Virus record (IMG/VR): IMGVR_UViG_3300023179_000035
Span: 52,395-116,394 of that record
Strand: one strand, 5' to 3'
DNA from: a virus
DNA length: 64,000 bases
Of the stretch, positions 21,076-23,755 are shown piece after piece. Position numbers and translations under genes: made by a program. Position 1 is the first letter of the stretch, and each line of letters starts with the position of its first letter. The notes under the pieces are model-generated. The model searched no databases and had not been told where the DNA came from. It saw nothing but the letters and a program-made list of their open reading frames with translations.

Positions 21076-21864
21076 ATGGCCAAGAAGCAAGAAGAGATGC
21101 AGCAGAAGAAGACCAAGTCTGAGGCTGACGACATAACGTCAGACCTCATAAAGGACCTCAACAAGCAGTTCCAGTCTCGGGTCGCCTTTAACCTCTCAGA
21201 GGACGCGGCCCCCACCATCGTCAAGCGCTGGATCCCGACCGGGTCGACGCTGTTGGACTACATCGTGTCCAACCGCCGCGACGGCGGCATGCCAGAGGGT
21301 CGTATCATCGAGATCTCTGGAATGCCTTCTACGGGCAAGTCTCACATCGCCTTCCTGATGGCGAAGAATGTCCAGGCCATGGGCGGCCTCGTCGTCTATG
21401 TCGACACAGAAAATGCAGTGCCCGTCGACAAGCTGGCAGCCATGGGCATCGACGTCCGCAAGCGCTTCGTCTACTGCGACACGCACTGCACAGAGGAGGT
21501 CTTCTCCATCATCGAGTCGACCATCACAAAGGCCAAGGCGGTCCTCGACAAGGACATCCCGATCCTCGTCGTGTGGGACTCTGTCGCCGCCACTTCGCCG
21601 AAGGCAGAACTGGAGGGCGAGTACGACCAGAACTCTGTGGGTCTCCAGGCCCGAACGATCTCCAAGGGCATGCGTAAGATCACTGGCGTCATTGGCCAGA
21701 ACAACGTCACCCTCGTGTGCCTTAACCAACTCCGCTCTGCTATCGGCGTTACCCACGGCGACCCGATGTGTGTTGAACCAGCTTCAACTCGAATTAAGAT
21801 CCGGTTCAGGCCAGATAGTCAGTTTGCAAAGCTGCTAGAAAGAAAGGAAAACAATGCTGAATAA
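21076..21864 (+). CDS. recA: RecA/UvsX N-extein fused to a 31-aa split-intein N-fragment (Cys1 at 21769)
   Basis: IPTGS, GGMPEGRIIEI, Walker A GMPSTGKS, YVDTE, WDSVAA, LNQLR...GDPM, then CVEPASTRIKIR...stop. Confidence 0.9.
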   Translation: MAKKQEEMQQKKTKSEADDITSDLIKDLNKQFQSRVAFNLSEDAAPTIVKRWIPTGSTLLDYIVSNRRDGGMPEGRIIEISGMPSTGKSHIAFLMAKNVQAMGGLVVYVDTENAVPVDKLAAMGIDVRKRFVYCDTHCTEEVFSIIESTITKAKAVLDKDIPILVVWDSVAATSPKAELEGEYDQNSVGLQARTISKGMRKITGVIGQNNVTLVCLNQLRSAIGVTHGDPMCVEPASTRIKIRFRPDSQFAKLLERKENNAE

Positions 21865-22222
21865 TGAATACATCGAAAAAGAAGTGAGTTTCTTAGAGTT
21901 GGCTTCGCTCTTAGGAGTCGAAGATTTCTCTGAAGAGACAGCGATTGACCTTGAGAACATGGGGATTCAAGTCGAATCACCCGCTGGCTTCTCTAGCGTA
22001 GATCAATTTTACGTCAAGGGCAGGGCTGATGGGTACTCTCTAGGCGACTTGATTGCCAGCGGTGAGCACAGAACACTTGTGAACAACGAGTGGGTAAAGC
22101 TGAAGGACAATCCTGAAGCCAAGAAATTAGGCAAGAGGATCGACGTCGTCGATATCTCTGTTCCTGATGGAAATGCTTACATCGCTAATGGCCATGTGAA
22201 TCATAATTCATCACCGGGTGGT
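21854..22222 (+). CDS. recA: Split-intein C-fragment (118 aa, ends HN at 22207) plus RecA residues SSPGG; exon 1 of the recA C-gene
   Basis: AAGGA SD. Block B-like ASGEH, block F VVDISV...YIANG, block G HN/S. The following SSPGG matches RecA TTPGG. Confidence 0.85.
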
Positions 22223-23281
22223 TGGAACTAAGCTTAGCCTCCCGTAAAAAATTCCGTGAATTGCTGGAAACTCCTTAGAGCCTTCTTTGCTACAACGCGG
22301 TTGGTAACGACGAACGTGAATGCAGAAAAAAAGAAGGATTGGACAATCAGCAGCCAAGCGCCAGAGCGATCTGGTGAAGGTTCAGAGACTAGAATGAGTA
22401 ATCTTGCGATGAACTCCGTACCTATTCATCATGCAAGAAGAAAATTCCTCGAGCGCGGAACGACTAGTTGAGTGCAAGGTATGCAGTAAGTCCATGAAAG
22501 CAATCACAAATTCTCACCTAAAGACGCACGGAATGACCACTAGCGAATATAGGGTCAAATTTCCGCATGCTGCATTTGGTGAGTTTTCTAGATTTGCTGA
22601 TTGGAGAAACAGTGAAGAAAATAAGGCACATATGCGCGAGCAGAACAAGCGCATCTTTTCTTCACATGAAATTCGTGAAAAGAGGAAGACCAACCTTTTC
22701 AAAGCCATGAAGACTGAGGAGTACAAGCAGGCGCTGTCAGCCGCCATGAAAGTGTACGCTCAAACTCCTCTTGGCAAGCAGAGGCTTTCAAATAAGCCTG
22801 TCACTGCAAGAATGAAGCTATCTAACTTTGAAAGGTGGGTCGATCAATTTGGGCTTGATGAGGCTGTAAGACGCCAATTGGATTGGCAGGCCAAGAATGT
22901 TTTGCCTGCTAAATCTCGGCACACAAAGCCTGAATTGATGTTGGCTGATATGCTGCGGTTGATGAACGTTAAGTTTATTGACCAATTCCCTCTTCCGCGG
23001 ATGTACTGCGACTTCTTCCTTCCTGACTACAACATGATTGTTGAGGTTGATGGCGATTATTGGCACGCAAATCCGTCGCTGTTTGCTCCAACTGATCTAA
23101 TAGGCAAGAAGAAGACAATGGCACAAGAAATTTGGGCTAGGGATGCAGAAAGAACGAACAAGATCCAATCACTTGGATATAAAGTGATGAGAATTTGGTC
23201 GTCTGATCTCAAAAAGACAACAGCCCAGCAACTGGTTGAAGATATAGTCCGGCACTGCGAGAAATTGCAGTGATTACACCG
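22223..23281 (+). mobile_element. Group I self-splicing intron in recA
   Basis: P AATTGCTGGAAA (22259), Q AATCAGCAG (22345), R GTTCAGAGACTA (22380), S GAAGATATAGTC (23238). P7 GACTA/TAGTC. P1 pairs exon CGGGTGGT with IGS GCCTCCCG, giving U.G at the splice site. Terminal G at 23281. Splicing restores PGG-NAIPFH in frame. Confidence 0.92.
22431..23273 (+). CDS. Intron-encoded homing endonuclease, Vsr/DUF559/EDxHD-like, with N-terminal zinc finger
   Basis: CKVC...HLKTH, then TKPE...QF...CDF...IVEVDGDYWH...RD...GYKVMRIW. Starts after the R element and runs through S. Confidence 0.85.
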   Translation: MQEENSSSAERLVECKVCSKSMKAITNSHLKTHGMTTSEYRVKFPHAAFGEFSRFADWRNSEENKAHMREQNKRIFSSHEIREKRKTNLFKAMKTEEYKQALSAAMKVYAQTPLGKQRLSNKPVTARMKLSNFERWVDQFGLDEAVRRQLDWQAKNVLPAKSRHTKPELMLADMLRLMNVKFIDQFPLPRMYCDFFLPDYNMIVEVDGDYWHANPSLFAPTDLIGKKKTMAQEIWARDAERTNKIQSLGYKVMRIWSSDLKKTTAQQLVEDIVRHCEKLQ

Positions 23282-23755
23282 AATGCAATTCCATTTCATT
23301 CTTCAGTTAGAGTCAGGCTAGGCTCTGGCTACCCAGTCAAGGACAAGGCAGGCAACGTCATCGGTATCCACGTCACCGTGTCAGTCAAGAAGAACAAGGT
23401 CGCCCTTCCCTTCCGGAAGTGCGAGTTCGACATCCACTTTGGCCACGGAATCGTCGAGCACGAGTTCTTGTTCGACGAGCTGCGGTCGTGGTGTGACGCG
23501 AATGGTTCAGCCCAGGCGGGTGGTAAGCTAATCTCTATCTCAGGATCTGGCGCCTGGAAGGAGCTGCGAGTGTCGGACTCTAAGACAGGTGAGGTCCTGC
23601 AGGAGAAGAAGTTCTACAAGAGCGAGTTTGGCGACCTGTGGGCGTCTGAAGAGTTCGGTCCTGTGCTTCGAGACCTGGCTGAGAGGGCACTCTGCGTCGA
23701 CCTATCTAGCTACAATCCAAACGAGACATCACCGGGAGAGAACGATGACGACTGA
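23282..23755 (+). CDS. recA: RecA/UvsX C-terminal part (exon 2)
   Basis: NAIPFHSSVRVRL...VKKNKVALPFRKCEFDIHFGHGI. Confidence 0.9.
   Translation, partial: NAIPFHSSVRVRLGSGYPVKDKAGNVIGIHVTVSVKKNKVALPFRKCEFDIHFGHGIVEHEFLFDELRSWCDANGSAQAGGKLISISGSGAWKELRVSDSKTGEVLQEKKFYKSEFGDLWASEEFGPVLRDLAERALCVDLSSYNPNETSPGENDDD

Follow-up and report, generated by a model that had tools for sequence, protein, structure and literature searches.

The recA gene of an uncultured freshwater phage, as read from the sequence and its open reading frames, consists of three coding pieces separated by two cuts that lie five codons apart, a two-part intein coming first and an RNA intron second. Within the window, by which we mean the whole 64,000-nucleotide stretch of DNA analysed, the locus occupies positions 21076–23755, with all its features on the plus strand. 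Our analysis makes it highly probable that the gene works, with two distinct selfish elements inserted among its L2-loop codons at a spacing of 15 nt, and suggests that intact RecA should require intron splicing plus protein trans-splicing. Such a dual need, at L2-loop sites spaced by five codons, had been proposed in an earlier note made from the sequence alone; the computational tests reported here support it, and the sequence and the list of open reading frames placed every element where that note had located it. The G+C content changes from ~0.60 to ~0.45 exactly across 21770–23290. All three elements are of known kinds and no new kind of element is revealed, while our search of the literature found no paper describing the pairing of a split intein with a group I intron in recA.

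The flanking coding pieces are recognizable parts of RecA. The N-extein (21076–21768, 231 codons, ending in ..GVTHGDPM) matches the Pfam RecA family over profile positions 6–201 (E 5.4e-38, 131.4 bits, cut-off 27), and exon 2 (23282–23755, 157 codons plus stop, starting with NAIPFHSS) matches it over positions 206–261 (E 3.1e-8, 33.9 bits, cut-off 27). Alignment to P0087, an uninterrupted relative, and to E. coli RecA places between them a micro-exon of 15 nt (22208–22222) that encodes SSPGG, the first five C-extein codons, and falls in the gap between the two profile segments. The frame of exon 2 joins that of the micro-exon only once 22223–23281 is removed. P0087 is 88% identical and reads GDPM-GTPGG-NAIPFHSS, aligned with GNPE-TTTGG-NALKFY of E. 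coli RecA, whose chains it matches with E values of 1.4e-44 and lower. Removal of both intein and intron restores the L2-loop motif, and the reconstituted segment foreseen for the window, GDPM-SSPGG-NAIPFH, agrees with the pattern of P0087 and with the E. coli segment.

The N-terminal part of the intein, IntN, extends over 21769–21864 and comprises 31 codons from Cys1 (block A, CVEPASTRIKIRF, and a tail), closed by a TAA stop at 21862–21864; Cys1, Val2, Pro4 and Thr7 are invariant in 6/6 aligned relatives. Its tail contains a Shine-Dalgarno sequence, AAGGA (21844–21848), 5 nt upstream of the ATG at 21854 from which IntC would be translated in a different frame, the two coding parts overlapping by 11 nt. 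IntC (21854–22207) was delimited by its open reading frame and by alignment, and its 118 codons contain blocks B, F and G and end in ..ANGHVNHN. H72 in block B, D100 in block F, H117 and N118 are invariant in all 11 aligned sequences, and the residue that follows IntC (+1) is Ser in the window and Thr in the 10 others. The residues expected of class-1 inteins are all present, namely Cys in first position, His in block B, Asp in block F, a terminal HN and a Ser or Thr at +1. The Pfam Intein_splicing model gave E 9.2e-4 and 19.5 bits on IntC, below its cut-off of 35.8, and a profile of IntC compared with solved inteins produced no sequence match (best E 0.64). At the level of predicted structure, the AlphaFold model of IntC (pLDDT 82.5) found inteins or intein-like domains at ranks 1–19 of the Foldseek search against the PDB, none with an E reaching 0.001, the best being 6dsl_B, an engineered atypically split intein (E 2.8e-3), and VidaL 6vgv (E 1.7e-2). 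A model of the complex of IntN with IntC scored 0.75 against 0.02 for the best control, with at least 95% of contacts agreeing between runs and partner pLDDT of at least 74, and it passed a mark reached by 58/80 solved complexes and 2/110 mismatched pairs; this pass may stem from resemblance to solved split inteins. Judged from its sequence features, the first element is most probably a class-1 mini-intein with a natural split in an atypical, N-proximal position.

The second interruption, a predicted group I intron that follows the fifth C-extein codon, covers 22223–23281 and has the length of 1059 nt previously claimed for it. It scored 55.0 bits with Rfam RF00028 (gathering score 50, E 1.5e-12) over model positions 1–253, and it is bordered by U at −1 (22222) and G at the 3′ end (23281), G being the final intron base in 5/5 intron-bearing sequences examined. 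RNAalifold identified an internal guide sequence, GCCUCCC (22237–22243), that would pair with GGGUGGU (22216–22222), the last 7 nt of the micro-exon and hence the exon strand of P1. In this helix, columns 9–15 of the RNAalifold output are paired with columns 34–40; it contains an internal U.U mismatch, and the U.G wobble at the splice site appears in 10/10 sequences. Over the 200 nt at the 5′ end of 10 aligned introns, 17/38 consensus pairs show compensatory changes on both sides. A clean P10 pairing was sought in the intron and exon sequence and none could be drawn. Introns without an ORF occupy the same place in relatives, measuring 329 nt in L006 and about as much in L113 and L114, where the Rfam match extends over 323 nt; they score 79.5, 79.2 and 70.9 bits with RF00028; the ORF-bearing introns of relatives score 34.7–40.9 bits. 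The short read-through anticipated on unspliced RNA was also recovered, as W-N-stop at 22223–22231 with the in-frame stop at 22229–22231.

The intron contains an ORF of 280 aa (22431–23273) encoding a putative homing endonuclease, as indicated by Pfam and PDB profile matches, with an N-terminal Ros/MucR-like zinc finger and a C-terminal Vsr-like PD-(D/E)xK nuclease domain. Pfam DUF559 matched with E 2.6e-9 and 37.4 bits (cut-off 20.6), Vsr fell just under its cut-off and ROS_MUCR, with 24.2 bits, just under 25.4; against the PDB, a profile of the intron endonucleases matched 1cw0 (E 3.1e-5) and 3r3p (E 4.8e-4). The latter is the solved catalytic domain of I-Bth0305I, encoded by the group I intron in recA of Bacillus phage 0305phi8-36 according to the available part of Taylor et al. 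2011 (PMC3239194). D194, H212 and D238 of the window protein align with residues named there as D196, H213 and D222 (PMC3239194), and these aligned catalytic residues are conserved in relatives. The two endonucleases have only the catalytic domain in common, with 23% identity over 114 aa: NUMOD/HTH-type regions, present in I-Bth0305I as far as the available text of PMC3239194 describes it, are absent from the N-terminal part of the intron ORF, where the zinc finger stands instead, and the N-terminal part of I-Bth0305I gives no alignment. The ORF lies inside a hairpin after the P3′ strand, read as P8, whereas that of 0305phi8-36 is located in the P1 loop in the portion available from Dassa et al. 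(PMC2677866). The earlier view that the 0305phi8-36 intron targets this region holds for the loop but not for the site, since the 0305phi8-36 intron is inserted at GD|PNVTTGG, 7 codons upstream of the window intron and 2 upstream of the window intein, in a recA that, unlike that of the window, is without an intein.

Taken together, these elements could be expressed as follows. A single transcript would be made from the locus, and the intron would excise itself, joining ..CCGGGUGGU to AAUGCAAUU. Translation would then yield RecA(1-231)-IntN and, from the Shine-Dalgarno sequence and ATG of IntC itself, IntC-SSPGG-RecA(C), after which the intein halves would dock as a Hint fold and trans-splice to give ..GDPM-SSPGG-NAIPFH... 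On unspliced RNA, ribosomes would terminate past SSPGG-WN. The endonuclease would presumably cleave alleles that lack the intron, close to the point of insertion, whereupon repair would copy the intron.

Several features argue that the locus is functional and not the wreckage of a decaying gene, with one or both elements splice-dead and a recA copy that is dead or dispensable. None of the three reading frames is broken, relatives conserve the catalytic residues of both intein and endonuclease, and natural variants are skewed towards synonymous changes (8 synonymous versus 7 non-synonymous in IntC, 12 versus 4 in the endonuclease), with neither stops nor indels. Likewise, compensatory pair changes appear in the intron core and the three-piece layout is kept in lineages whose exteins are 48–72% identical. 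Decay is improbable in view of these data, even though the P1 helix is mismatched, the ORF-less introns of relatives show that loss of the endonuclease gene is ongoing, and the record is 32% complete (CheckV), so that a second recombinase gene is possible.

The split, too, is most probably genuine. Separate ORFs for IntN and IntC are kept in five diverged lineages whose junction sequences differ, each of the five junctions examined has a Shine-Dalgarno sequence upstream of the start of IntC, with Shine-Dalgarno-like purine runs in L006, L009, L013 and L015, and in L016 a whole endonuclease gene lies between the intein halves, IntN having 18 aa. ORFs encoding only IntC, of 121–150 aa, occur in ten database clusters. 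It is accordingly very improbable that a sequencing frameshift mimics the split, or that parts of two phages were joined at a repeated intron core, although the overlap of IntN and IntC in different frames, the existence of contiguous inteins of the same clade (L111, L112 and 24/74 cluster representatives, at the same site), the ending of probable-source contigs at 22214–22245 with depth rising to ~436, and the presence of the same 30 nt in an intein-less recA would all fit such an artefact. No misassembly, which the earlier note had raised as a concern, was found, as contigs from three other studies cross the junctions with substitutions only (11–25 across the junction) and without gaps. X6 record 17, in which 25 substitutions and no gaps occur, spans 21734–22243, X2 record 12 spans 22023–22783, X7 record 25 spans 22091–22303 and X2 record 14 spans 22797–23304, with zero indels among all the bridging contigs. 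As for the probable source sample itself, its Logan contigs break within 22214–22245, the repeated intron core having a depth of ~436 versus 28, and the join over this interval consists of a 28-nt overlap together with the bridging contigs of other studies.

Least credible of all is the absence of RNA splicing, with the C part translated from GTG 23270 (MITPNAIPFH..), RecA made of three polypeptides and the supposed intron an intergenic endonuclease gene: an in-frame GTG does lie 12 nt upstream of exon 2, and free-standing Vsr-like endonuclease genes are known to fracture genes, as the available part of PMC2677866 describes, and are present in the same phage, but the interval matches the group I model end to end (1–253) with covariation, its U and G borders fall exactly where excision restores the RecA frame, the second break has no flanking intein-like or docking sequences, and ORF-less versions scoring 70.9–79.5 bits stand in the same place (L006, 329 nt; L113, L114).

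A recA interrupted by a split intein and an intron shares traits with several known systems. Dassa, London, Stoddard, Schueler-Furman and Pietrokovski (2009) described fractured phage-type genes of DNA metabolism that carry split inteins, with the halves in one locus, and that are associated with Vsr-like homing endonuclease genes; in the part of that paper available, recA figures solely in connection with the introns of Bacillus, and UvsX is named just as an adjacent ORF (PMC2677866). The layout of L016, with IntN, a Vsr-like gene and IntC in this order, resembles those fractured genes, and the same layout apparently also exists in two other genes of the window phage. As far as the available text permits the comparison, the window recA differs from them in having no free-standing endonuclease gene between the halves, which overlap by 11 nt, in the atypical N-proximal position of the split, and in the location of its Vsr-like gene, which lies instead inside a group I intron that follows the intein at a distance of 15 nt. 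Naturally atypically split inteins, such as VidaL, PolB16, AceL-TerL and GOS-TerL, have an IntN of 15–37 aa in the accessible portions of PMC13014065 and PMC11766414, and the very short IntN (31 aa) and long IntC with blocks B, F and G are reminiscent of them. The window intein is set apart by its lack of detectable sequence similarity to solved inteins and by its RecA host, and it belongs to a large family with contiguous members at the same site. Another case in which a single essential gene of DNA metabolism depends on RNA splicing as well as protein splicing would be that of the Bacillus prophage ribonucleotide reductase genes, which are said to carry both introns and inteins, as reportedly described by Lazarevic in 2001; those inteins are reportedly contiguous and not adjacent to introns.

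The stacking of a split intein on an intron had been called very unusual, which holds in print but not in nature, as an intron follows the same GG codon in 18/21 IMG/VR loci of this intein clade. Related recA loci are mostly uninterrupted, 75/80 having neither element. Among 74 cluster representatives, 8 show the same pattern of intein plus intron and 28 carry the intein without the intron, and within the intein family the intron pattern occurs in 17 rows with split inteins and in 0/25 rows with contiguous ones. Conversely, an intron appears in the intein-less allele P0189, ending in ..GDPVTTPGGWN-stop, and X1 and X6 contribute loose ends at 22214 that were likewise taken as introns in intein-less alleles. 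Between the window and L006, nucleotide identity is 87–88% in the intron and 65–67% in intein and exteins, while L016 and P0013 have near-identical inteins and only P0013 has the intron-type stop. Since either element can be found by itself, the two do not form an obligate unit, and the lower divergence of the intron compared with the intein also speaks against joint mobility; on this sequence evidence, which points both ways, the intein may be co-mobilised by the intron endonuclease.

With only 15 bp between the elements, repair of an empty allele from a double donor would be expected to copy both. We tentatively consider, while holding it somewhat doubtful, that split intein and intron are a coupled mobile cassette and not chance neighbours, the endonuclease-less intein riding on the Vsr-like endonuclease. 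Coupling could possibly arise by co-conversion over the 15-bp spacer, or the conserved 3′ terminus of the intein gene might be part of the target, in which case the intron would prefer intein-bearing alleles. Such a cassette would explain the intron pattern with split inteins only, the intron in 18/21 clade loci and the 75/80 uninterrupted loci. Comparable passengers are documented in the accessible parts of reports on trans homing of phage T4 mobE and the defunct I-TevIII intron (PMC2790892) and on what has been named collaborative homing (PMC2814812), where an endonuclease-less element can travel with the repair set off by an endonuclease next to it; the partners there are an endonuclease gene and an intron, whereas the possible passenger here is a split intein. 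On the other hand, the available portion of a study on haloarchaeal MCM (PMC10643990) describes neighbouring inteins that interfered with each other, hindering and not helping each other's homing. As a corollary of a coupled cassette, IntC-SSPGG-WN made from unspliced RNA would use up RecA-N in a dead-end ligation, which would couple RecA output to splicing efficiency. The capping of RecA-N by the unspliced product, already suggested in the earlier note, is conceivable in principle, but the tail added by read-through is poorly kept, with WN, WF, WLS, WSIS, EMLASLARG and others among relatives, and nothing suggests selection. If true, the coupled cassette would be an instance of protein-level and RNA-level selfish elements cooperating.

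At one and the same RecA site, inteins are found in contiguous and in split form; some split inteins have an endonuclease gene between their halves, and others precede an intron, which may or may not carry an endonuclease gene. These variants would correspond to several stages of the gene-breaking model of Dassa within one gene family. The family would also add many diverse, naturally atypically split inteins, with a predicted IntN of 18–37 aa, to a class presented as rare and useful in the available portions of the protein-labelling literature (PMC13014065, PMC11766414). Should our reading of the locus hold, one recombinase would require two self-splicing chemistries five codons apart, and the phage recA would offer a compact natural system in which to ask whether an RNA-level selfish element and a protein-level one cooperate, interfere with each other or act independently.

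The interrupted recA gene (21076-23755, plus strand) lies within a replication/recombination module of this freshwater phage, whose source IMG/VR virus record comprises 116 kb and is rated 32% complete. The module runs in the order family A DNA polymerase, HD protein, gp32-like ssDNA-binding protein, interrupted recA, dUTPase, 5'-3' exonuclease and DnaB-like helicase. Direct reading of the sequence bore out every coordinate that the earlier note had assigned to the locus. The RecA N part, 231 codons with the C-terminal residues ..GVTHGDPM, ends at 21768 and is followed by the N half of a split intein, IntN, whose 31 codons (CVEPASTRIKIRF plus a tail) extend from the Cys at 21769 to a stop at 21862-21864. 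The C half, IntC (118 codons, ATG at 21854 to 22207, ending ..ANGHVNHN), is read in another frame than IntN, overlaps it by 11 nt and has a Shine-Dalgarno (SD) sequence AAGGA at 21844-21848, 5' of its ATG. A micro-exon of five codons, SSPGG (22208-22222), comes next, from which read-through would give W-N-stop, and the frame restarts after 1059 nt in exon 2 (23282 to the stop at 23755), which opens with NAIPFHSS.

The two outer parts match the Pfam RecA profile at positions 6-201 (N part, E 5.4e-38) and 206-261 (exon 2, E 3.1e-8), and the micro-exon corresponds to the profile positions left between both matches. Among the 120 database clusters that best matched the N part, P0087 represents an uninterrupted RecA of 393 aa, 88% identical to the N part, whose junction reads ..VTHGDP-M-GTPGG-NAIPFHSSVRIRLGSGYPVKDKAG.. 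and aligns to ..gvmfgnpetttggnalkfyasvrl.. of Escherichia coli RecA. From this alignment, the intein is inserted behind the position held by the Glu of GNPE in E. coli, and the intron behind the second Gly of TTTGG, in the stretch known as the DNA-binding loop L2. Comparisons with P0087 and with P0189, an allele discussed below, were made at the protein level, and the counts come from IMG/VR loci. The spliced RNA is predicted to join 22222 to 23282 as CCGGGUGGU/AAUGCAAUU; none of the sequencing runs listed for this sequence is recorded as RNA. Evidence drawn from sequence supports the proposal of the earlier note that RecA would here depend on RNA splicing as well as on protein trans-splicing.

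Alignments showed conservation of the intein residues Cys1, block B His (..ASGEH..), block F Asp (VVD), terminal His-Asn and a +1 Ser or Thr. At the sequence level the intein is remote: Pfam Intein_splicing matched IntC below its cut-off (E 9.2e-4), and the IntC profile found no significant intein among solved structures (best E 0.64). A tblastn search of IntC against 50,697 GenBank phage records gave no match. An AlphaFold model of IntC (pLDDT 82.5) retrieved inteins or intein-like domains at fold-match ranks 1-19, none of them reaching E 0.001, with the engineered atypically split intein 6dsl_B as the best match (E 2.8e-3) and VidaL (6vgv, E 1.7e-2) at rank 3. The modelled complex of IntC with IntN scored 0.75 versus 0.02 for the best control, a mark attained by 58 of 80 solved complexes and by 2 of 110 mismatched pairs, with at least 95% contact agreement between runs and a partner pLDDT of at least 74; this pass may derive from likeness to solved split inteins. 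Natural atypically split inteins have an IntN of 15-37 aa in published accounts (PMC13014065; PMC11766414), a range that includes the 31 aa found here.

The split of the intein is real, as three lines of evidence indicate. The halves stay in separate ORFs, with differing junction sequences, in five diverged IMG/VR lineages (loci L006-8, L009-11, L012-14, L015 and L016), whose IntC is 41-55% identical to that of the window. In the five junctions inspected, the IntN tail contains a purine-rich SD (AAGGA, AAAGGAAG, AAGGAG, AGGAG) right before the IntC start, and in L016 a whole Vsr-like endonuclease gene separates both halves. Independently assembled contigs from other studies span the junctions, namely record 17 of set X6 (21734-22243, 25 substitutions and no gaps), records 11 and 12 (21804-22783) and 14 (22797-23304) of set X2, and record 25 of set X7 (22091-22303), and no indels relative to the window are listed in the compared contigs. 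When the 35 listed natural substitutions were classed, synonymous to non-synonymous changes numbered 12:4 in the intron endonuclease, 8:7 in IntC and 3:1 at the RecA-N/IntN end. A caveat is that, in the likely source run, contigs break at 22214-22245 with depth up to ~436; depth in the likely source sample is ~212-436 over the intron 5' core (22213-22414) versus ~28-36 in the flanks, and several of its contigs carry other letters in place of 22275-22340. The depth rises at 22214-22245 because the intron core is common to other genomes in the sample, and numerous further genomes in that lake sample must contain closely related intron cores.

The intron was matched to the full group I model of Rfam (RF00028, 22202-23271), its 55.0 bits exceeding the gathering score of 50 (E 1.5e-12). 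With the boundary set so that the RecA frame is regained, the exon closes on U (22222) and the intron on G (23281); shifting it by one base would leave the protein the same, but the intron would end in C. An RNAalifold consensus of the micro-exon and the first ~180-190 intron bases (~200 nt) from ten intron-bearing relatives paired the exon GGGUGGU with the intron GCCUCCC (22237-22243), with a U.G wobble at the splice site in all ten sequences, one internal U.U, and changes on both sides with pairing kept in 17 of the 38 predicted pairs. The P1 drawn by the Rfam alignment itself on an exon hairpin was dropped, as RNAalifold recovered the pairing of the exon with the internal guide sequence in 10/10; inspection by eye found no convincing P10 pairing, and a match to snR85 (22538-22671, E 0.24) was taken as chance. 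Among the relatives, introns devoid of an ORF scored 79.5 (L006), 79.2 (L114) and 70.9 bits (L113), and ORF-bearing ones 40.9 (L013), 40.3 (L118), 37.0 (L015), 36.9 (L009) and 34.7 (L104). A DNA search of GenBank phages matched only the intron core, which was 71-77% identical over ~120-160 nt to introns in unrelated phages of Bacillus, Staphylococcus, Lactococcus and Vibrio.

The intron contains an ORF of 280 aa (22431-23273) that matches Pfam DUF559 above the cut-off (E 2.6e-9), and Vsr and the Ros/MucR zinc finger slightly below theirs. A profile of five such proteins matched E. coli Vsr (1cw0, 3.1e-5) and the catalytic domain of I-Bth0305I (3r3p, 4.8e-4), the latter not being found by phmmer with the single window protein. 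Aligned pairwise, the window protein and I-Bth0305I are 23% identical over 114 aa (E 1e-5), and a D, an H and a D of the former, invariant in the five-protein alignment, stand opposite D196, H213 and D222 of the latter, residues named in Taylor et al. 2011 (PMC3239194). Most of the ORF occupies a hairpin after the P3' strand of the Rfam alignment, which we read as P8, and its last 12 codons overlap the 3' core, including the conserved GAUAUAGUCC. The intron of L006 (3734-4062) equals the window intron (22223-23281) minus a clean 730 nt, endonuclease codons 26-268, and retains the ATG, 25 codons at the start of the ORF and 12 at its end, an apparent snapshot of an endonuclease being lost.

A scan of IMG/VR with the IntC alignment returned 26 loci, 21 of them with full IntC. 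In 18 of these 21, an interval of ~320-1100 nt follows a (T/S)(T/V)PGG micro-exon, and from the ORF pattern it is read as a probable intron. Rfam matched nine of the ten IMG/VR sequence types submitted; the tenth, L115, had no match at E 0.01 or better and is counted as intron-bearing by ORF pattern only, its 1.1-kb gap holding a GDYWHANP motif. The remaining full-IntC loci have no intron, two carrying a contiguous intein (L111, L112) and one (L119, from the L016 contig) an endonuclease gene between the halves. Among the 80 IMG/VR loci most similar to exon 2, 75 are uninterrupted at the site, including four (L024-L026, L073) in which PGG directly joins exon 2 though the upstream GDP pattern was unmatched; the other five comprise the L006-8 contigs again (three) and two unclassed loci, one at a contig edge (L061) and one not parsed (L099).

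HMMER against 1.84 billion representatives yielded 74 IntC relatives, of which 28 have IntC with the full C-extein, 24 are single ORFs that span N-extein, intein and C-extein, and eight show the intron pattern, in which the frame beyond IntC meets a stop 2-11 codons past the GG that ends the micro-exon; five fragments and nine sequences with no RecA-type junction were set aside. On a tree of 68 IntC rows, limited to those whose state could be classed and that had 100 residues or more ahead of the intein end, the split-plus-intron state requires at least seven changes, at least four of them forced by well-supported branches, versus a mean of 15.4 in shuffled data (as low in 0 of 500 shuffles). 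None of the 25 contiguous rows displays the intron pattern. Split and contiguous forms mingle within the family P0010-P0083 (16-18 changes for 25 rows each), and splitting or re-fusion seems to have taken place many times at this one site. The unsplit intein of the same clade in L111 (2706-4346) and L112 lies in a RecA ORF of 546 aa that is unbroken where relatives have the stop, SD and ATG, and it nests on the tree among split-plus-intron forms.

Joint travel of both elements is favoured by these association counts (loci, representatives and tree) and by the similar, low G+C of the inserts in a G+C-rich gene (IntN 0.42, IntC 0.45 and intron 0.45 versus 0.59 and 0.55 in the exteins, the flanking RecA parts; GC3 0.32-0.52 versus 0.82 and 0.68). 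Divergence from the L009-L015 clade, which is about equal for all parts (identity 47% in the endonuclease at the amino acid level, 45-54% in IntC and 48-66% in the exteins), points the same way. From what is known of homing, the 15 bp between the elements would offer repair hardly any homology in which to separate them. Against an obligate unit, however, P0189 is an intein-less allele with the intron pattern (..GDPVTTPGG-WN-stop), contigs of sets X1 and X6 place GVMYGDPTTT immediately 5' of PGG and the first 21 intron bases, and the intein often occurs free of the intron among the 74 representatives. Likewise, the window and L006 are 87-88% identical in the intron versus 65-67% in inteins and exteins (nt), L016 and P0013 have near-identical inteins with the intron-type stop in P0013 only, and experiments on neighbouring haloarchaeal inteins (PMC10643990) found interference and not help. 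We conclude that intein and intron are two separable elements whose linkage is real in the data.

Other intein pieces were observed in this phage and its relatives. The RecA N-part clusters P0088 and P0178 end ..NQLRDAIG/CVSPETKVTVRK.. and a stop, an end that resembles the IntN of a further atypically split intein, with its insertion point six codons upstream of the one in the window; if so, the same loop would hold a second intein site. L016 (2991-4007) shows the classic layout of a fractured gene, a free-standing Vsr-like gene with the GDYWHANP motif between an 18-aa IntN and IntC, in a recA that lacks the intron. Over 77 aa, the nuclease domain of this Vsr-like protein shares 34% identity with the intron endonuclease of the window, and the N-terminal part is unrelated. 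Further pieces occur at ~27187-29242 and ~46460-47868 of the window (79581-81636 and 98854-100262 of the whole record) and, outside it, at 17756-19036 of the record. Two of these sets include a Vsr-like nuclease match between IntN-like and IntC-like matches, and one is a contiguous intein in a 1110-aa ORF; other genes of this phage seem to follow the classic fractured arrangement, in which a Vsr-like gene separates the two halves of an intein.

The nearest described systems include natural atypically split inteins and the fractured genes described by Dassa et al. 2009 (PMC2677866), which involve the same endonuclease family and logic; the window recA differs in having no endonuclease between the halves and an added intron. 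The group I intron of phage 0305phi8-36 recA, with I-Bth0305I, had been cited in the earlier note as targeting this region; it does occupy the same loop, but at a different site (GD/P), and the endonucleases have only the nuclease domain in common. We found no description of a split intein adjoining an intron in recA in the literature covered, mostly open-access articles. The stacking had also been called very unusual, which holds as far as published descriptions go but not for its occurrence, given the 18 of 21 IMG/VR loci and 8 of 74 representatives. The arrangement is built from elements of known kinds and is recurrent in uncultured phages.
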